The notes under the pieces: generated by a model | Database searches by the model: none | Told to the model about the DNA's origin: nothing | Seen by the model: only the letters and a program-made list of their open reading frames with translations | Shown: positions 4,273 to 55,012 of the stretch, piece after piece | Position numbering within the stretch: the stretch's first letter is position 1 | Layout: each line of letters opens with the position of its first letter | From: an uncultured Alphaproteobacteria bacterium | GTDB lineage: Bacteria; Pseudomonadota; Alphaproteobacteria; Rs-D84 | DNA length: 64,000 nt | Direction of reading: 5' to 3' | Assembly (NCBI GenBank): GCA_949878575.1 | Contig: CATLAX010000002.1 | Span: 357,634-421,633 of the forward strand | Made by a program: the position numbers and the translations under genes

Positions 4273-5328
4273 AAAATTATAAACAGATATTTTTTGCGCC
4301 AACTGCTGATGGTGTTTGTGATGCTGCTGTTGGTTCTGACAGGACTGGCATGGATGGTGCAGATTATGTCCATGATGAAATTCCTGTTAAACTATGGGAT
4401 ACAGTTAACAAACTTTCTGGGGCTAACCATGCTAATGGTGCCTTTTATAGTATCCATCATCGTGCCGTTTGTTACATTTATCGCAATCATTTTTGTATAC
4501 AACAAGATGATCTCTGACAATGAAATAACCGTCATGGCCGCGTCCACACTGTCGCCGCGGCAACTGGCGCGGCCGGCATTGATTCTGGCGGCTGTGATGG
4601 CGGCGGCCCATTTTGCGCTAAACATGTGGGTCGTGCCGGCGTCCCAGGCGCGTTTTTACGACACCCAGTGGAATCTGCGCTATGGGCTGGCCCACATGAA
4701 ACTGCAGGAATCGGCCTTTACGGAAATGTCTGACGGTCTGGTTGTGTACGTGGACAAGGTGTCCGGCCATGATTTAAGCCAGGTAATGCTGTCGGACACG
4801 CGCGATGAAAACAACCAGATAACTATATTCGCCGAAAAGGGCAAGCTGGTGTCAACCGCGCGCGGTCTGTCCATAGTGATGACAAACGGTTCGTTAATGG
4901 CGTCCGGCGGCGCGACAACCGTCGGAACGTTTGAAAGTTTTGACATGGATTTAAATGTCGCGGACAAGGGCGGCGGCGGAAATTTCCGCGTGCGCCGCGT
5001 ACCGACGACGGAACTGTTGAAAACGCTGTTTGACGCGCCGAGCGAAAAACAGCACAAGGCGGTATTGTCGGAATTATCAACCCGCCTGTACAGCCCGGTT
5101 ATGAACCTGGTGCTGGCGGCGCTGTGCGCGGTTGTGCTGCTGCGTTCGTCGCTGCTGCGGCGCCGGGCCAGCTTTGCGCCGGCGGTGGCGGTTCTGGCCA
5201 TGGCGGTTGTAATGGCGGCGTTCATGTCTGCATCAAACATGGTGTCGTCTGTGACACAGTTTGTGGTGCTGGGGGCGGCAATCGGGTTGCTGTTGGCGGG
5301 AATATTGACTGTACTGTATAAAAAATGA
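4273..5328 (+). CDS. LPS export permease, LptF/LptG (YjgP/YjgQ) family
   Basis: MKIINRYFLRQLLMVFVMLLLVLTGLAW… typical LptF/LptG N-terminus, multiple TM helices; stop overlaps lptD start (ATGA). Start chosen at internal Met 4273; ORF opens at 4234. Confidence 0.8.
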   Translation, partial: KIINRYFLRQLLMVFVMLLLVLTGLAWMVQIMSMMKFLLNYGIQLTNFLGLTMLMVPFIVSIIVPFVTFIAIIFVYNKMISDNEITVMAASTLSPRQLARPALILAAVMAAAHFALNMWVVPASQARFYDTQWNLRYGLAHMKLQESAFTEMSDGLVVYVDKVSGHDLSQVMLSDTRDENNQITIFAEKGKLVSTARGLSIVMTNGSLMASGGATTVGTFESFDMDLNVADKGGGGNFRVRRVPTTELLKTLFDAPSEKQHKAVLSELSTRLYSPVMNLVLAALCAVVLLRSSLLRRRASFAPAVAVLAMAVVMAAFMSASNMVSSVTQFVVLGAAIGLLLAGILTVLYKK

Positions 5329-46782: not shown

Positions 46783-46832
46783 GTGCCACCTTTTTTGACA
46801 AAAGATAGCACACGACCCGATTTTGTCAATAA

Positions 46833-48050
46833 TTATTCATATCGCAGACTGTCAATCGGGTTTAGTTTGGCCGCCTTTAACGCCGGCACCACCCCGGACG
46901 CCAGTCCCACAATCACCGCAACAGACACCGACAGCACCACCGGCCAGATTGAAAACGGCACGTTGTATCCCAGGATAAGACGCCCCACCCCCTGGGACAG
47001 GCCCACCCCCAGAATCAGCCCCGTCATTGAGCCGATAAAGGATATGAATATGGATTCTGACAGGAACTGTATTATTATCTGGCGTTCACGGGCGCCGATG
47101 GCCTTGCGCACGCCGATTTCACGCGTACGTTCCGCAACAGACACCAGCATCATGTTCATAATGCCGATTGAACCCACCAACAGTGACACCGCCGCAATCG
47201 CAATCAGCAGCATTTTTAAATACCCCGTAACGGTGTTCATTGTTTCCATAACCTGTTTCATGTCCATAATCTGGAAATCATCCGCGGCGTCGTCCTTTAA
47301 CCGGTGCCGGTCGCGCAACAGTGCGGTTATCTGGTTTGTTGCCACGGTATTGTCTGCATCCGGATACAGTTTTAATGCAATCATGCCGACCGCGTTCGGA
47401 AAACGGCTGCCCTGCAGGCGCTTTTTTAATGTTGTTATCGGAATTATTATCATGTCGTCCTGGCTGCCCATGGCGGAATCGCCCTTTGCCCGGGTCATGC
47501 CTATTACGACAAAAGGCGTGTTTTGAACACGTATAACCTGGCCCACGGGGTCCGCCGGCAGGTCCAGTTCTTTTGCCGTTGTGGGCCCGATTACGGCATA
47601 TGTGGCCGCATTACGCACGGCTGCGTCGTCAAAGAACGTTCCCTTGTCCATTTCAACGTTTTGAACCGTCGTATAGGCGGGATACGCCCCGACCATGGAC
47701 GTGGCCCAGTTTTTATTGCCATAGACCACCTGGGCCGCGCTGTTCTGAACAGGCGTTATCGCCATAACATCCGGCAGGCGTCCTATAAATTCCGCATCAT
47801 CCGTGGTTAAGGTCTGGCGGTTGCCACTGCGCACGCCGCCCGTTTGCGCCGCACCGGCGCGAATCATAATAGTGTTCGTCCCCAGGGATGAAAACTGGTC
47901 CGTTATCTGCCGTTGCACGGTTTCACCCACGGCAACCATTATAACCACCGCCATAACGCCGATAACAATGCCCAGAACCGTTAAAAACGAGCGCATCTTG
48001 TTCCCGGAAACGGAAAGCCATGATTCCTTAAAAATATCGTTAAACGTCAT
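46833..48050 (-). CDS. MacB-type ABC transporter permease (FtsX family)
   Basis: N-terminal TM helix, large periplasmic domain, C-terminal 3-TM FtsX domain. Confidence 0.85.
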   Translation of the reverse strand: MTFNDIFKESWLSVSGNKMRSFLTVLGIVIGVMAVVIMVAVGETVQRQITDQFSSLGTNTIMIRAGAAQTGGVRSGNRQTLTTDDAEFIGRLPDVMAITPVQNSAAQVVYGNKNWATSMVGAYPAYTTVQNVEMDKGTFFDDAAVRNAATYAVIGPTTAKELDLPADPVGQVIRVQNTPFVVIGMTRAKGDSAMGSQDDMIIIPITTLKKRLQGSRFPNAVGMIALKLYPDADNTVATNQITALLRDRHRLKDDAADDFQIMDMKQVMETMNTVTGYLKMLLIAIAAVSLLVGSIGIMNMMLVSVAERTREIGVRKAIGARERQIIIQFLSESIFISFIGSMTGLILGVGLSQGVGRLILGYNVPFSIWPVVLSVSVAVIVGLASGVVPALKAAKLNPIDSLRYE

Positions 48051-48065
48051 TGTTTCCCCCCGGGG

Positions 48066-48791
48066 CTACAGATTACGGTCGCTTTTCGGCATGGGGCCGT
48101 CGTAATTTATATGGCCGTCGCGAATATGAATTAGCCGCGACGCATACTTTGCAATGTCAAATTCATGGGTAATCATGACAATCGTAATGCCCATGTCGTG
48201 ATTTAGCTGCTTAAAGAATTTCAAAATTTCGTTACCCATTTTACTGTCCAGGGCGCCGGTCGGCTCGTCCGCCAAAATCAATTTCGGGTCGCCGGCCAGG
48301 GCGCGCGCAATCGCGACGCGCTGCTTCATTCCGCCCGACAGCTGCGTCGGCAGATAATTTTCAAATTTTTCCAGTCCCACGCGCTTTAACATTTCGCGCG
48401 CGCGCCGCACGCGTTCCGACATCGGCAGCCCGCGGTACATCAGCGGCAACATCACGTTGTCCAGCACCGTCCGCTTTGCCAACAGATTAAACTGCTGAAA
48501 AACAAAGCCTATGTGCTGGTTGCGAATCACGGCCAGTTCGTCCGCAGACAGGCCCGTAATATTCCTGCCGTACAGTTCGTACGTCCCGCCTGACGGCGTG
48601 TCCAGCGCACCTATGATATTCATGCACGTTGATTTTCCGGAACCAGACGGCCCCATAATCGCCACAAATTCGCCGGCATGAACGTCAAAGGTTATGTCAA
48701 ACAAAACCTGCTGGGCGCCGCCGACCTCTAACGGGAAAATCTTCGTGATGCTTTTCAGCGATATTATAATTTCCGGTTTTTTGCTTTTCAT
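48066..48791 (-). CDS. ABC transporter ATP-binding protein (MacB/LolD type)
   Basis: Walker [13 protein letters not shown] signature LSGGMKQR, Walker [12 protein letters not shown]; start set at [13 protein letters not shown]. Confidence 0.85.
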
Positions 48792-48813
48792 ATGCCGCAC
48801 CGCCTTTGTCACA

Positions 48814-49995
48814 TTACATCGGGCCGCCCGGACCACGGCCGCCGCCATTGCGCTTGGCCCCGGTGGCGCCGGCGGAATCCATTCCCGCACGCCCGACGAT
48901 TATACGGTCGCCCTGCACTATTTCATCAGAGACAACCTCTGTCTCCGTCGCGGTTACCAACCCCTTTTCAAACGGGACCAGTGTCGCCTGTTCGCCCCGC
49001 AACAACGCCAGGTGTGTTTTAGGCGTCGCATCGCCCGGATTTTCCACTATTCCTTCAAAACTGCGCAGCAACAGGGCCGCATTCTGAACCTTCCAAACAT
49101 CGTGCTTTTCCGTTACGATGATTGTTACAAACGCCGTCATGCCCGGCATCAAGCGCAAATCGGAATTGTCAACATCTATCACCACCGTGTATACCACAAC
49201 GTTTGACGTTGTTGTCGGCGACAGGCGTATCTGGCGAACCACGCCTTCAAATGTCTGGGTCGGGTACGCGTCAACGGTGAATGTCACCGCCTGGCCTTCC
49301 TTTATTACGCCAATATCCGCCTCTGACACGGATGTTTCTATCTGCATACTGGTCAAATCTTCGGCTATTTCAAACAAATCAGGCGTCTGGAAAGATGCGG
49401 CGACCGTCTGGCCTTTGTCCACCTTGCGCGATATGACTGTGCCGTCCACGGGCGACGTAATCGTCGCATAGCCCAGGTTTGTCACAGCACGGTCGTACTG
49501 CGACTGGGCCCGTTTAACAGACTGTTCCGCCTGTTCATAGGTTGTCTGCGACTGCTCCATTTCCGCACGCGCGATATAGCCGTCGTTGTACAGGGTCTTG
49601 TTGCGCTTATATTCATTGCGGGCATAATTACGCTGGGACACGGCGGAATCAAGGGATGCTTTTGCCTCGTCCACGGACGCCTGCAGAACGGACGGCTCTA
49701 TTTTCAACAGCAAGTCGCCCTTTTTAACCTTTGAATTGTAATCCACGTACAGCTCGTCAATCGTACCGGATACCTGGGAACCGACACTGACCGTGTTTAC
49801 GGGCTTAATCTCGCCGGTGGCGGTCACAACCTGGCGCAGTTCACCCTTGTTTATCGGCAGGGTTACAAAGTCACCTTTTTTGGATTTGCCGCCGCCAAAT
49901 ATCAGCATCGCGCCAACAACAACCGCCGCCAGAATCAAAACCCACCATTTTCTGCGCCACAGCCATTTAAAAACGGCCTTTATTTTATTTTTCAT
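48814..49995 (-). CDS. HlyD/MacA-family periplasmic adaptor subunit
   Basis: N-terminal TM anchor, coiled-coil hairpin, barrel domains typical of membrane fusion proteins. Confidence 0.85.
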   Translation of the reverse strand: MKNKIKAVFKWLWRRKWWVLILAAVVVGAMLIFGGGKSKKGDFVTLPINKGELRQVVTATGEIKPVNTVSVGSQVSGTIDELYVDYNSKVKKGDLLLKIEPSVLQASVDEAKASLDSAVSQRNYARNEYKRNKTLYNDGYIARAEMEQSQTTYEQAEQSVKRAQSQYDRAVTNLGYATITSPVDGTVISRKVDKGQTVAASFQTPDLFEIAEDLTSMQIETSVSEADIGVIKEGQAVTFTVDAYPTQTFEGVVRQIRLSPTTTSNVVVYTVVIDVDNSDLRLMPGMTAFVTIIVTEKHDVWKVQNAALLLRSFEGIVENPGDATPKTHLALLRGEQATLVPFEKGLVTATETEVVSDEIVQGDRIIVGRAGMDSAGATGAKRNGGGRGPGGPM

Positions 49996-51322
49996 AATCT
50001 ATACCCTCCTGTTCCAGTTCGGCCTTTATTTCCCCCACAGCCAGCGCAACCGCCGCCCGTTTTGTAAACAAATCATATTTGGCCGCGTTGTTCTGCTTTT
50101 GCGCGTCAACCAGTTCCGACTGCGCCGTCTGCCAGTCCAGCATGGTCGCACGCCCCACCTTGTACATGCCGGCGGTGACCTTTTCGCTTTCCGTTGCAGA
50201 CTGCAACAGTGTTTCCGTCTGGGTCAAAACCTTTTGCGCCGTTTTATAGTTCTGATACGCCGTAAATATATCCAGCGCGGCATTATCCGCCGCCGCACGC
50301 TCAGACTCTTTGGCACGGTCATAGTTCGCCTCGGCCGAACGCACGCCATAATAATTTGCAAAACCCGCAAAAATAGGCATGGATGCACGGATACCGATAC
50401 TGCCGGAAACCTTGTGCCCGTCGTTTGCAAACGAATCCAATTCCGTATCGTTCCAGGAAATGGAGCCGGTCGCAGAAATACTGGGCAAATTCTTTAAAAA
50501 AGACGCATTTCGCCGGTGCCAGGCCGCATCCTTGTTCGCGGTCGCACGCAGCAAATCGGGACGGCTGCGCCGGGCGGCCTCCAGCAGCTCGTCAATGCTT
50601 TTGTTTTCCGTTGTACGCCCGAAATTTGACGGCATGTCCTGAATCACAATATCCTGGTCGGCGGGAAACGACAATTTTGACAACAGTGTTCCCTTTGCGA
50701 TTTCACGGTTGTTTTTCGCCCGCTCCAGCGCCAGCTCACGACTGGCCAGGGTTGTTTCCGCCTTTAACACATCTGCCTTGGCGACAGAGCCGGCCTTGTA
50801 CTTCTTTTGCGCCATGTCGCGCGCGGTCTGGGCCACTGTCCGCAGTGAATCAGCACTGGCCACGTCCGCATCCGCGTTAAGCAGCGCATAATACGCCCCG
50901 ATTACACCGTATACGTAATCCTGAATACTTTCGTCATAATCAAAACCGGTGGCACGCCATGTCGCGGCCAAAGTATTTAAATCCGCCAGACGTTTTCCAA
51001 AATCAAAAATCAGATAAGACGCCGACAATGACGCCCCGTAATTCCAATCGCCCCAGTCTTTGTTGCGGTAATCGCGACCCGCACTGGCCCCGGCGGAAAT
51101 ACTCGGCAAATAACCGGCATAACCCGCGTTTTTTGAAAAGCGCGCCGATTCGGCCGCCAAATATGCGGATGTTGTTTGTGGATTCCGGCACAGCCCCAGC
51201 TCTATTACCTCTTGCAGTCCCAGCGGCGTTTCCGGCAAAGTTTGGCGCGTGGCGCAATTTTCAACAGGCGCGCCAAACGCAGATAATGGCAAAAAACATG
51301 CCAATAATGTAAACTTTCTCAT
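49985..51322 (-). CDS. TolC-family outer membrane efflux channel
   Basis: Signal peptide, tandem coiled-coil plus beta repeats, 445 aa; heads the efflux operon. Confidence 0.85.
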   Translation of the reverse strand: MRKFTLLACFLPLSAFGAPVENCATRQTLPETPLGLQEVIELGLCRNPQTTSAYLAAESARFSKNAGYAGYLPSISAGASAGRDYRNKDWGDWNYGASLSASYLIFDFGKRLADLNTLAATWRATGFDYDESIQDYVYGVIGAYYALLNADADVASADSLRTVAQTARDMAQKKYKAGSVAKADVLKAETTLASRELALERAKNNREIAKGTLLSKLSFPADQDIVIQDMPSNFGRTTENKSIDELLEAARRSRPDLLRATANKDAAWHRRNASFLKNLPSISATGSISWNDTELDSFANDGHKVSGSIGIRASMPIFAGFANYYGVRSAEANYDRAKESERAAADNAALDIFTAYQNYKTAQKVLTQTETLLQSATESEKVTAGMYKVGRATMLDWQTAQSELVDAQKQNNAAKYDLFTKRAAVALAVGEIKAELEQEGIDYEK

Positions 51323-51615: not shown

Positions 51616-52488
51616 TTATTCACACAATTTTTCAACCAGTTCCTGCATCTGAACACGGGTTGTGAACGATAAAACAAACTGACCCGCGCCACCGCGACGC
51701 TCCACCAAACGCACAGGTACCCCCAGTGCCGCCTTTATCCGCGATTCGATGTCACGACGCGTTTCATCGTCTATTGTTTTTGATGTAAACGCCCGGCTTT
51801 TTCCGGAACGACCGCCCTGCTTTACCATCTGCGCAATATCCGCAACCGGTATTTTTTCTGCAACTATTCTTTTGGCCAGCGCCTCTTGATTATCCGCCAC
51901 CGCAATGGTGCGCGCCGCAGACGCGGAAAGTTCGCCCCGCTCCACCATTTCCTTGACCGGCGCATCCAGCGAATTTAAGCGCATTATGTTTCTGATATAG
52001 CTTTCGGACTTTCCAATCAAACGCGACACATCCGCTAAATCATAACCGCACTTGTCCATTAGATTCTGGTATGCGGCGCCCTCTTCTATCGGGTTAAGAT
52101 TTTCACGCTGAACATTTTCAATCAGCGCTATTTCCATGGCGTTTTCATTGCTAAGCGTTTTAACCAGGGCCGGAATTTCCGCCAGACCGGCCAAACGACT
52201 GGCACGGAAACGCCGTTCACCAGCGACAATTTCATACATATACGGACGCCCCGTTACGGCACGCACCAAAATCGGCTGCAAAACGCCCTTCTCTTTTATT
52301 GACGCGGCCAGCTCTGCCAGTTCATCGTCCGTAAAAGTTTTACGCGGCTGATCGGGATTTGCACCAATCTGCACCAACGGAATATGTTTTACCACAACGC
52401 GCTCGGCCCCGGTTAACATGGATATGTCCGGTATGGCGCTCATCTCCTTGCTTAAATCACCCAATCCCTTGCCCAAAAACTTAGACAT
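51616..52488 (-). CDS. parB: Chromosome partitioning protein ParB
   Basis: ParB N-terminal box, HTH and dimerisation domains; start at MSKFLGKGLGDL with AAGGAGG RBS (ORF opens at 52674); overlaps parA stop. Confidence 0.9.
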   Translation of the reverse strand: MSKFLGKGLGDLSKEMSAIPDISMLTGAERVVVKHIPLVQIGANPDQPRKTFTDDELAELAASIKEKGVLQPILVRAVTGRPYMYEIVAGERRFRASRLAGLAEIPALVKTLSNENAMEIALIENVQRENLNPIEEGAAYQNLMDKCGYDLADVSRLIGKSESYIRNIMRLNSLDAPVKEMVERGELSASAARTIAVADNQEALAKRIVAEKIPVADIAQMVKQGGRSGKSRAFTSKTIDDETRRDIESRIKAALGVPVRLVERRGGAGQFVLSFTTRVQMQELVEKLCE

Positions 52489-53260
52489 TTTTGCCTCCTT
52501 CGCTGCGCTGTACCACCTCTGTCGCGACACGCAGATACGCCTGGGCGCCGGTGGAGTTAAAATCGTAAAACAATGCCGGCTTGCCGTGGCTGGGCGCCTC
52601 TGACACGCGCACATTGCGCGGAACAACCGTTTTAAACACCTTGTCGCCGAATGATTCACGTACGTTGTCGTCAACCTCCCGCGTTAGGCCGTAACGCCGG
52701 TCATACATCGTCAGCAGCACACCCAGAATTTCCAATTCCGGATTCCATTCCGCACGCACGGCCTTTATCGTGTTCATTAACAGCTGCACCCCCTCCAACG
52801 CAAAGAATTCACACTGTAGTGGAATAATCACCTCGTTCGCGGCCGTCAATGCATTAATCGTCAACTGGCCCAATGCAGGGGGACAATCCAGCAAAATATA
52901 ATCATAATGCTGTAAAATCGGCGCCAGCGCATCACGCAAGCGAAACGCCCGGTTTTCAACATCCAACAAATCTATTTCCAACCGCGCCAAGGCCTGGGAC
53001 GCCGGCATTAAATGCAACCCCGGAACCGCCGTGGACAAAATATTGTCTGCGGCAGGCGCCGTACCCATTATCACGCCGTAAACACTTTGCCGGCACGATT
53101 CGCGCACGAAACCCAATCCGGTTCCGGCATTGCCCTGTTGATCCAAATCAATCAACAGCACGCGCTTTTTTATCGCCGCCAGTGATGCGCCAATATTAAT
53201 TGCAGTTGTGGTCTTGCCCACGCCCCCCTTTTGATTTGCAAATGCTATTATCTTTGTCAT
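52481..53260 (-). CDS. parA: Chromosome partitioning ATPase ParA (Soj)
   Basis: Deviant Walker A NQKGGVGKTTTAINI; 259 aa. Confidence 0.95.
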   Translation of the reverse strand: MTKIIAFANQKGGVGKTTTAINIGASLAAIKKRVLLIDLDQQGNAGTGLGFVRESCRQSVYGVIMGTAPAADNILSTAVPGLHLMPASQALARLEIDLLDVENRAFRLRDALAPILQHYDYILLDCPPALGQLTINALTAANEVIIPLQCEFFALEGVQLLMNTIKAVRAEWNPELEILGVLLTMYDRRYGLTREVDDNVRESFGDKVFKTVVPRNVRVSEAPSHGKPALFYDFNSTGAQAYLRVATEVVQRSEGGKNV

Positions 53261-53410
53261 TCTTCCTTTCCGATATTTTTCGTTTTTAGAGTATAAAATC
53301 CCCCAGCACCAGTCAAGGCATTAAAATATAAAAATATTTTCTGTATAAAAACATTGAAAAACAATAAGTTATACAATATTTCATATGAAACAAAACGAAT
53401 CGCCCGTTTT

Positions 53411-53439
53411 TTTGACAAACATCACATCTTGTGCTATCC
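53411..53439 (+). promoter_or_regulatory. Near-consensus sigma70-type promoter (TTGACA-17-TATCCT)
   Basis: -35 TTGACA at 53411-53416, 17-nt spacer, -10 TATCCT at 53434-53439; about 30 nt upstream of the AAGGAG RBS and GTG start. Confidence 0.45.
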
Positions 53440-53468
53440 TTAATAGGATATATTTAAGGAGAAAGATT

Positions 53469-54419
53469 GTGAAAATTAAATTTAAAAAGCTATTCAAATG
53501 GTCTTTGCCTGCAATTATTATAACAACCGGCGCGTTCGTTTCTTCGCACACATCCGCCAACATTCAAAACAAGGAAGAAGTACAAAAAGCGGCAACAACC
53601 ATAAAAGACAACCGTCCGGAAATAAGAATCAGATATGATACCATTTATCTTACGGAAGAATATCTGGATACAAATAAAAGCATCAATCTGGGACTATTCT
53701 TACCAACCGACAACAGCGTCAGCATGAAACATTTTGTTCCGGTTGACAGCACAAAACGCGTAATGAATTTTGCCCAAACCCACAACAGCCAGCGCGCGGC
53801 TATTTTGCGTCACGAGCTGGAGCACGGCCGCAAGGCGCACCTGTGGGCAAACACAGAAGACAGGGCGCCGTTCGTACGCGGCCAGATAGCATGCATGAAC
53901 GAGGTTATGGCCCCGGCCGGAGAGGTTATAGAAAGCGCCGAGAACGAATGGCTGACCGGCATTCCGACCCAGGGTCCGGACATGTTGAAAAAAACAACCA
54001 GCGCCATTTTAGACGAAAACAGAAAAACACCTTTTGGCTTAATGGGCGGGGTTGACTTTACAAACCAGAAAATTGCGGATATTGTTTTAAAATACGCAAT
54101 AGATAAATATATCAGGGAGTTTAACCGCGGCGTTTACAAATGGCCTGTACGAAAAAAACTGGACGCGAACAGAAAACATATCAATTACAAACCAAACAAA
54201 GAATGCAATCCCATGGACAAAATAATGTTCTTTCCGGAAAGCGGCGACTGGAGCCAGATGTTTGCATACAAAACCAAAAGCGGCAAAAATATAAACATAT
54301 GGAAAAGTGCATCAGAAAAAATGCGCCGCGAGGTACGGGAACGTGTTGATTCTGCGACAAACTCATTACTAAAGCCCGGCGAATACTTAACTGCTTTTAA
54401 AACACCGGAAAAAAAGTAA
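53469..54419 (+). CDS. Secreted hypothetical protein with HExxH zinc-metalloprotease-like motif (lower GC)
   Basis: GTG start after AAGGAG RBS gives signal peptide VKIKFKKLFKWSLPAIIITTGAFVSSHTSA; HELEH motif in …AAILRHELEHGRKAHLW…; AT-rich codon usage. Confidence 0.6.
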   Translation: MKIKFKKLFKWSLPAIIITTGAFVSSHTSANIQNKEEVQKAATTIKDNRPEIRIRYDTIYLTEEYLDTNKSINLGLFLPTDNSVSMKHFVPVDSTKRVMNFAQTHNSQRAAILRHELEHGRKAHLWANTEDRAPFVRGQIACMNEVMAPAGEVIESAENEWLTGIPTQGPDMLKKTTSAILDENRKTPFGLMGGVDFTNQKIADIVLKYAIDKYIREFNRGVYKWPVRKKLDANRKHINYKPNKECNPMDKIMFFPESGDWSQMFAYKTKSGKNINIWKSASEKMRREVRERVDSATNSLLKPGEYLTAFKTPEKK

Positions 54420-54430
54420 AATTAAAAACT

Positions 54431-54468
54431 TACCGGTAATTTCATGTGAAATTACCGGTGTTTTTGTA
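54431..54468. terminator. Long perfect hairpin terminator (ACCGGTAATTT-CATGTG-AAATTACCGGT then T-run); overlaps the 3' end of rsmG
   Basis: 11-bp stem read directly; follows the HExxH gene stop. Confidence 0.55.
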
Positions 54469-55012
54469 TAATTATTATAAAACCGTCACCGGTCTTTGAC
54501 GGAATAAGATCATAATCAAAAGAATATTTCTTTTTGGCCTCTTTAACCTCAGCCTCTATTTCCCGGCCTTTTAATAAAAAAAGCCGGCATTTTGTTTTAA
54601 AAACATAATCCAAAATTTTTACAAGTGGCGCAAATGCACGTGCTGTAAATATTGTGTTGCCGGCATTTACCGGTGTTTTCGCAATAAAATCTTCAACCCG
54701 GCCGTGATAAATCGTTAAATTATCCAGGGCCAGATTTGTTTTTACATCATTCAAAAAGGCGACCTTTTTACCGATTGATTCAATACATGTCACGCGCCAG
54801 CCCAAAATAGCCAGCACAACACCGGGAAAACCGGCACCACTGCCCAAATCTATGATATTTGCATCCCGCGGCAAAACATCCGCCAACTGGGCACTGTCGG
54901 CAAAATGCCGCGTTTCAATATCTTTTAACGTACTGGGCGCAACCAGGTTCATCTTTTCAGACCACCGGCGCAGCATCGCAGCATACTGTTCAAATTTCAC
55001 TTTATTATTCAT
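54452..55012 (-). CDS. rsmG: 16S rRNA (guanine527-N7)-methyltransferase RsmG (GidB)
   Basis: SAM-binding motif IIDLGSGAGFPGVVLAI; 186 aa. Confidence 0.9.
   Translation of the reverse strand: MNNKVKFEQYAAMLRRWSEKMNLVAPSTLKDIETRHFADSAQLADVLPRDANIIDLGSGAGFPGVVLAILGWRVTCIESIGKKVAFLNDVKTNLALDNLTIYHGRVEDFIAKTPVNAGNTIFTARAFAPLVKILDYVFKTKCRLFLLKGREIEAEVKEAKKKYSFDYDLIPSKTGDGFIIIIQKHR

Follow-up and report, generated by a model that had tools for sequence, protein, structure and literature searches.

Gene X, a plus-strand gene of 316 amino acids (aa) located between the partition gene parA and rsmG (53469..54419; GTG start, TAA stop), was the subject of our analysis of a 64,000-nucleotide stretch from an uncultured alphaproteobacterium (contig CATLAX010000002.1, positions 357,634 to 421,633). 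This whole stretch is referred to below as the window, and coordinates are counted from its first letter. We consider it reasonably probable that the X protein is exported and acts as a gluzincin-type zinc metallopeptidase, representing an undescribed family. The gene is not a recent import; it is of long standing and has been passed on vertically in a slot between two predicted parS sites in a gut alphaproteobacterial clade.

The enzymatic reading is carried by residue conservation across a family that was difficult to retrieve. A word-indexed search returned only two relatives, with 50% and 48% identity, and matches from the word index numbered three with the single protein and nine with a profile. 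The family emerged only from an exhaustive HMMER search of 1.84 billion cluster representatives, which yielded 60 clusters (48 at E < 1e-30), nearly all of about 300 aa. In the resulting family alignment of 53 sequences, which share 23-51% identity with X, the only invariant columns were H115, E116, H119, E145, E152, and Y223, and the nearly invariant ones included E118, A120, K122, R137, and A148, the last conserved in at least 90% of members. The pattern HExxH-x(24-27)-Exx[A/S]xxxE was present in 86 of 87 full-length sequences (some redundant), with a chimeric fragment as the exception, and the turn position of this set was occupied by Ala 83 times and by Ser three times. A scan of the 53 members with curated profiles produced only isolated single-member matches at E 0.003 or weaker, including one M48 and one M35.

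The initial annotation had taken an HELEH motif, about 110 residues into the mature protein, as suggestive of a zinc metalloprotease. The motif is indeed present at residues 115-119 (H115-E116-L-E118-H119; 53811..53825, + strand), but it lies only about 85 residues into the mature protein. The HExxH is not fortuitous: it is invariant over about 60 clusters, and the downstream search for a third ligand led to an invariant Glu, E145, which forms part of an ExxA motif in the predicted helix that follows (E145-V-M-A148-P-A-G-E152; 53901..53924, + strand). The most distant homolog (P0066; E = 2.5e-5) retains the arrangement as HEIDH-x24-EISA..E, although Pfam scans of divergent members, P0066 included, found nothing. 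P0066 is encoded outside the par locus (L112, 645-1634), with a dual-specificity phosphatase (DSPc) gene on one side and a Ser-hydrolase/polA block on the other. Because it keeps the motif in an unrelated gene context, a wider superfamily may exist beyond the X family of the par locus.

An AlphaFold2 model built on the 53-sequence alignment reached a predicted local distance difference test (pLDDT) score of 89.3 and a predicted template modeling score of 0.84, whereas a three-sequence alignment gave an unusable pLDDT of 48.6. In the model, residues 1-29 are disordered and are followed by three strands (53-61, 75-78, and 83-91) and a helix (96-107). The HExxH motif is borne by helix 109-121 at pLDDT above 95, and E145, A148, and E152 are carried on one face of helix 134-163. 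The C-terminal half is mostly helical, with Y223 (54135..54137, + strand) situated where helices 200-219 and 224-231 join. The predicted elements follow the gluzincin succession: a sheet, a backing helix, the active-site helix, and then the glutamate helix.

According to the gluzincin rule, the third-ligand Glu is carried by the helix after the active-site helix and precedes the Ser/Gly-turn residue, most commonly an Ala, by three positions (PMC6414381, PMC9002140). X resembles the gluzincins (zincin tribe, MEROPS clan MA(E); e.g., thermolysin and aureolysin of family M4) in its helical HExxH followed by a helix with an Exx[A/S] Glu, as well as in the predicted small beta-sheet and backing helix ahead of the active-site helix, its invariant downstream Tyr, and its export signal. 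It differs from the thermolysin type in lacking detectable sequence or significant fold similarity, and 25 residues intervene between His and Glu in X versus 19 in thermolysin. Moreover, the second invariant Glu of X lies 7 residues past the ligand, whereas M4 enzymes have an Asp 4 residues past it, and the helical C-terminal half (171-309) has no recognized counterpart. In the mechanism that we propose, the mature domain, of some 33 kDa, would bind zinc through H115 and H119 of the active-site helix and E145 of the next helix, and E116 would activate the hydrolytic water. A148 would be the "Ser/Gly-turn" residue, with E152 and Y223, the latter a candidate transition-state stabilizer, supporting the metal site and the transition state. 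The small N-terminal sheet would accommodate the substrate along its edge.

Several results weigh against the assignment of X as a gluzincin peptidase. The protein had no match in Pfam or NCBIfam and none among PDB sequences. Structural similarity to zincins, another point raised by the initial annotation, was not recovered: the best Foldseek E values were 0.57 against the PDB and 0.044 against BFVD, with no significant match, and the entries for collagenase G/H, anthrax lethal factor, and phage "peptidases" appeared only as insignificant hits. An hhalign comparison of the family profile with an approximate thermolysin sequence aligned only the HExxH (probability, 1.3%) and is evidence neither way, and the convergence of H115, H119, and E145 on one metal site is inferred. 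In addition, gene X is dispensable, because strains with a frameshifting 388-bp deletion exist.

The missing fold and sequence matches to any peptidase, the large C-terminal half (171-309) without a recognized counterpart, and the dispensability of X in some strains would also fit X as an exported zinc-binding protein that has a zincin-like scaffold without protease function, such as a non-peptide hydrolase, a protein for metal binding or adhesion, or an inhibitor. However, an invariant general base (E116), an ExxA turn residue, and an invariant Tyr together form the full catalytic set expected of an active gluzincin, and the catalytic Glu is usually lost in pseudo-enzymes. A non-protease role therefore seems to us rather unlikely, and we retain the zinc metallopeptidase as the preferred assignment.

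Two groups of known enzymes help to delimit this assignment. FP0506, the elastinase of Flavobacterium psychrophilum, is a small, lineage-restricted gluzincin lipoprotein that was modeled on the M48-like structure 3C37 via HHpred (PMC6414381). X shares with the FP0506/3C37 type a length of about 250-300 aa, export as a signal-bearing protein or lipoprotein, and an HExxH with an invariant ExxA, and, like FP0506, it cannot be placed in a MEROPS family by sequence and is confined to one bacterial clade. In contrast, FP0506 comes from an unrelated host clade, could be modeled on 3C37, and has demonstrated elastinase activity, whereas X has no PDB match and a predicted activity. The metzincins (HExxHxxGxxH plus a Met-turn) have the HExxH in common with X, and the window protein reads HELEHGRKAH; nevertheless, neither this Gly nor this His is in register with the metzincin motif, and neither is conserved in the family, whose consensus is HExEHARKAxL. 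As the extended HExxHxxGxxH/D motif is not conserved, a metzincin assignment was rejected.

The N-terminus contains a predicted Sec signal peptide (residues 1-30; 53469..53558, + strand), consistent with the signal peptide of the initial annotation. By inspection, it comprises an n-region (MKIKFKKLFK), an h-region (WSLPAIIITTGAFV), and a signal peptidase I-like c-region (SSHTSA), with cleavage before N31. Among the 53 members, 48 have a Lys-rich N-terminus, a hydrophobic segment of 12-20 residues (Kyte-Doolittle window of at least 1.6), and a polar linker. The segment ends in Cys in about a third of members, several with lipoboxes (LAGC, LAAC). Because this signal or lipobox pattern recurs across members, the X product is predicted to leave the cytoplasm. 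The precursor would be exported by Sec and, in this genome, cut by signal peptidase I after about A30; as for its final location, the third of relatives with a Cys-ended segment are possible lipoproteins.

The start codon was placed with the help of the family. The longest open reading frame at the gene (53385-54419, + strand; 344 aa) is opened by ATG 53385, and a 344-aa version beginning there, at the center of the upstream parS site, is found in some NCBI/ENA records (P0005). This start was rejected, since it sits within the parS site and the family alignment favors GTG 53469, the start used by the gene callers in public assemblies and in agreement with the family-wide N-terminus MKFKK. A Shine-Dalgarno sequence, AAGGAG (53456..53461, + strand), lies 7 nt ahead of the GTG. 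The opposite-strand gene between parA and rsmG, its AAGGAG ribosome-binding site, and its GTG start were thus all found as initially annotated.

The second main finding, the long residence of X at this locus, rests on its position. The slot is flanked on the left by parA (52481..53260, - strand) and on the right by rsmG (54452..55012, - strand), both confirmed by Pfam/NCBIfam. All 25 loci recovered had X in this slot, even where its protein was only 25% identical to that of the window, with ParA proteins there being 75-82% identical; these loci comprised seven lineages obtained by exact-protein look-up and 18 from a scan of metagenome contigs, among them human-gut contigs of up to 935 kb. The gene order was parB and parA (both leftward), X (rightward), rsmG (leftward), and a TPR gene (rightward). 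No paralog of X was found in the 64-kb window. A contig scan with patterns derived from the three-sequence alignment detected no X relative, the patterns being too specific to establish absence from GTDB representatives, and a second genome scan for relatives used ParA as the query. The nearest GTDB genomes by ParA (73-84% identity) were gut metagenome-assembled genomes (MAGs) from roe-deer cecum, buffalo rumen, and horse feces, including Candidatus Enterousia sp. These five relatives lack X and have an rsmG-parA spacer of 185-343 bp, and X was likewise absent from every other alphaproteobacterial parA locus fetched. Relative to these genomes, X does interrupt the rsmG-parA neighborhood, as had been proposed.

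In a neighbor-joining tree of ParB, ParA, RsmG, and the TPR protein, the X-bearing lineages and the X-lacking L008 formed one clade (80 of 100 bootstraps), with the X-lacking L006/L007, L009, and L010 outside it, which suggests one old gain followed by one loss in L008. Under this scenario, X would have entered a short spacer between pre-existing parS sites once, in a Candidatus Enterousia/Rs-D84-like ancestor, and would since have been inherited in place, transcribed from a conserved near-consensus promoter, and occasionally lost.

The initial annotation had instead seen in X a horizontally acquired secreted enzyme with strong expression, placed near the partitioning locus and a candidate effector or predation hydrolase. 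A recent acquisition of this kind would fit the absence of X from all other parA loci fetched, including those of the five close relatives, its GC content below the window average, and its strong promoter and signal peptide. The comparison of the P0002 and P0003 lineages (L003 and L004) might be added, in which synonymous divergence (dS) is much larger for X (0.90) than for parA (0.05), with rsmG at 0.32, a difference compatible with allele exchange within the clade. Nucleotide identity between these two loci was 94-100% in parA, fell to 41-55% at the 5' end of X, and returned to 91-98% in rsmG, a mosaic pattern compatible with recombination. However, the uneven dS extends over the whole neighborhood rather than X only; an X-specific recombination hotspot was not upheld, as other pairs showed uneven dS across all neighborhood genes, sometimes with the lowest value in X. 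The slot is the same in every one of the 25 loci, and such conservation of position across the family is what the initial annotation had itself named as grounds for refutation. The distribution is consistent with a single old gain. The locus showed neither an integrase or transposase gene nor a tRNA or direct repeats of the mobile-element type, and its flanking repeats are parS sites that also occur in X-lacking genomes. Homologs of X were not detected in plasmids or phages by tblastn, in viral contigs, or in PHROGs.

The lower GC of X (0.438 versus 0.53 for the window) had been read as a sign of foreign DNA. The value itself holds, but it is not specific to X: the core gene rsmG is lower still, and its GC (0.414) and third-position GC (0.39) are the lowest of any gene in the window (versus about 0.53 and 0.6, respectively). 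X and rsmG were each 2-11 GC points below parA across the seven lineages compared, so the dip is not a marker of foreign DNA, and this criterion was rejected. The GC of rsmG was also below that of its neighbors in related genomes. As for predation, Enterousia belongs to the uncultured order Rs-D84, whose members are fermentative and have genomes smaller than 1 Mb (PMC12306168). The nearest genomes are reduced-genome gut MAGs of this Candidatus Enterousia/Rs-D84 group, in which nothing indicates predation, and that part of the proposal has no basis. Recent horizontal acquisition of an effector is therefore very improbable in our view, and X is better described as a resident of its slot.

Selection acting on X was evident from ratios of nonsynonymous to synonymous divergence (dN/dS) of 0.06-0.27, which indicate purifying selection; hypervariability under positive selection was rejected on the same values. 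At large divergence, dN was 0.45-0.70 for X, 0.10-0.20 for parA, 0.11-0.18 for rsmG, and 0.21-0.31 for the TPR gene, and the evolutionary rate of the X protein is about 3-4 times that of ParA and RsmG. The segment missing in some strains (53944..54331, + strand; 388 bp) is bounded by GCGCCG.GAG microhomologies, and its loss leaves a 171-aa product. The strains concerned are 98.4% identical and belong to the window's own species. The 171-aa product (P0004) was seen on 10 contigs, and the deletion is present in L109 (5464-5475), L110, and L111. Such an allele within the same species, together with the loss in L008, could be taken to mean that X is a decaying or non-functional remnant. Intact open reading frames of about 300 aa in about 60 clusters, the low dN/dS, the invariant catalytic-type residues, and the conserved promoter speak against this; since these selection and conservation data refute it for the window allele, we find the remnant hypothesis scarcely credible, and X is treated here as a maintained gene.

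The slot is bounded by two palindromes, both of which are predicted parS sites. The chromosomal parS consensus of ParABS systems is TGTTNCACGTGAAACA (PMC7022226). The upstream site, parS1 (TATTTCATATGAAACA; 53377..53392), matches it at 13 of 16 positions and contains ATG 53385, and the downstream site, parS2 (AATTTCATGTGAAATT; 54438..54453), abuts and overlaps the rsmG stop codon. Their 12-bp palindromic core, TTTCAYRTGAAA, occurs exactly twice in the 64 kb (53379-53390 and 54440-54451), compared with 0.04 occurrences expected from shuffles. Of the first 90 alphaproteobacterial loci fetched, 84 had this core in the vicinity of parA. The sites bracketing X resemble the chromosomal parS of ParABS systems in being 16-bp palindromes at conserved positions beside parAB and rsmG. 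They differ in their center, which in this clade is CATATG, CATGTG, or CACATG in 52 of 56 sites versus CACGTG in 147 of 158 sites elsewhere (L011-L085), and in enclosing a protein-coding gene together with its promoter. Judging from the sequences, the shifted center in the Rs-D84-like clade suggests co-evolution with its ParB.

The position of parS1 was kept in 21 of the 24 X-bearing loci covering this stretch, with a near-match in the other three, and in five of five X-lacking relatives; the upstream copy deviates from the exact core in L100 and L106. Almost all X-bearing loci had one parS just upstream of X and another between the X and rsmG stop codons, and wherever both exact cores were detected among L001-L005 and L086-L111, the pair bracketed X at the same positions. 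In the X-lacking L006-L010, both sites lie 49-200 bp apart in the rsmG-parA spacer (at about 4660-4895). Because X-lacking relatives carry the same two sites, X sits exactly between two parS sites that pre-date it.

The long hairpin terminator initially described as overlapping the 3' end of rsmG proved to be primarily the parS2 site. The hairpin is present and does overlap rsmG: a palindrome of 28-30 bp with a 13-bp stem (54431..54460), in which parS2 is lengthened by ACCGGT arms, is terminator-like in both directions, with folding energies of -20.4 kcal/mol (z = -6.8) and -19.6 kcal/mol, and covers the rsmG stop codon (54452-54454). However, although it has the features of a terminator (stable hairpin plus U-run), the stable fold and the ACCGGT-arm extension belong to this lineage alone; four orthologous loci reached only -3.7 to -8.9 kcal/mol, which was not significant. 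A conserved terminator hairpin was thus rejected in favor of parS, and the window hairpin may terminate transcription in both directions.

Upstream of X, a sigma-70-type promoter (53412..53440, + strand) consists of TTGACA (53412-53417), a 17-nt spacer, and TATCCT (53435-53440) with an upstream TG, in agreement with the near-consensus promoter first noted. Promoter-like sites in this AT-rich stretch were not in excess of shuffles (5 found versus 4.4 expected); the promoter is nonetheless credible because 17 of 18 lineages have TTGACA at the equivalent place, separated from the upstream parS1 by 8 to about 40 bp. This distance is 8-13 bp in most lineages and 21 bp in the window, and in the lineages that keep the promoter, a TATAAT-like hexamer follows 16-17 nt past TTGACA. 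The ATG start of X lies 6-9 nt past the -10 hexamer in at least nine lineages, which implies leaderless X mRNA in those lineages; these short intervals were seen in L004, L086/L101, L091, L092/L094, L097/L099, L100, and L106. A 5' leader with a Shine-Dalgarno sequence was found in three lineage groups (the window, L002, and L103/L105), all of which use a GTG start. Farther upstream, between the parA start and parS1 (window ~53300-53320), lies a conserved element, CGATTCGGTCAAG(R), which is also present at equivalent positions in L002, L004, L086-L090, and L006-L010, in X-bearing and X-lacking loci alike. It is probably the -35 box of parA, because its reading on the parA strand contains TTGACC or TTGACT.

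This layout raises the possibility that the significance of X lies in the partition locus, the transcription unit being controlled by, or modulating, the loading of ParB at parS, with the chemistry of the product secondary. ParB at parS can modulate neighboring genes in other bacteria (PMC4488948, PMC7022226), and in loci with both cores, the conserved -35 hexamer follows parS1 by 8 to about 40 bp, and parS2 is at the 3' end of X. The position of parS1 falls within the zone used by upstream activators or by the alpha C-terminal domain of RNA polymerase. ParB loaded at this centromere near the origin could then set X expression, with parS1 in the UP-element/activator zone in most lineages and parS2 closing the gene, a mechanism that we regard as doubtful. 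Both parS sites pre-date X, however, standing only 49-200 bp apart in X-lacking relatives, so the juxtaposition may be incidental, and an exported product would make no contact with DNA. We give the partition-centered explanation as a whole little credence beside that of X as an exported metallopeptidase. If ParB did set its expression, secretion of a host- or partner-directed protease would be coupled to the state of replication and segregation in a reduced-genome gut symbiont.

Just beyond parB, the window encodes a MacB-like ABC transporter, a membrane-fusion protein, and a TolC-like outer-membrane protein (~46800-51322). MacB-type transporter genes also occur within a few kilobases in related loci, with less tight linkage.

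If X is an active peptidase, it would be the founding member of a gluzincin family not described before, whose C-terminal half lacks a recognized counterpart. No current database profile annotates X, and the practical yield of this work lies mainly in better annotation and in a testable enzyme hypothesis. The arrangement of a gene between two parS sites offers a clean natural case for the effect of ParB occupancy on an embedded promoter. For the organisms themselves, a poorly known clade whose described members have genomes of less than 1 Mb, a clade-specific exported enzyme retained behind a consensus promoter would be a plausible handle on feeding or on interaction with a host or partner.

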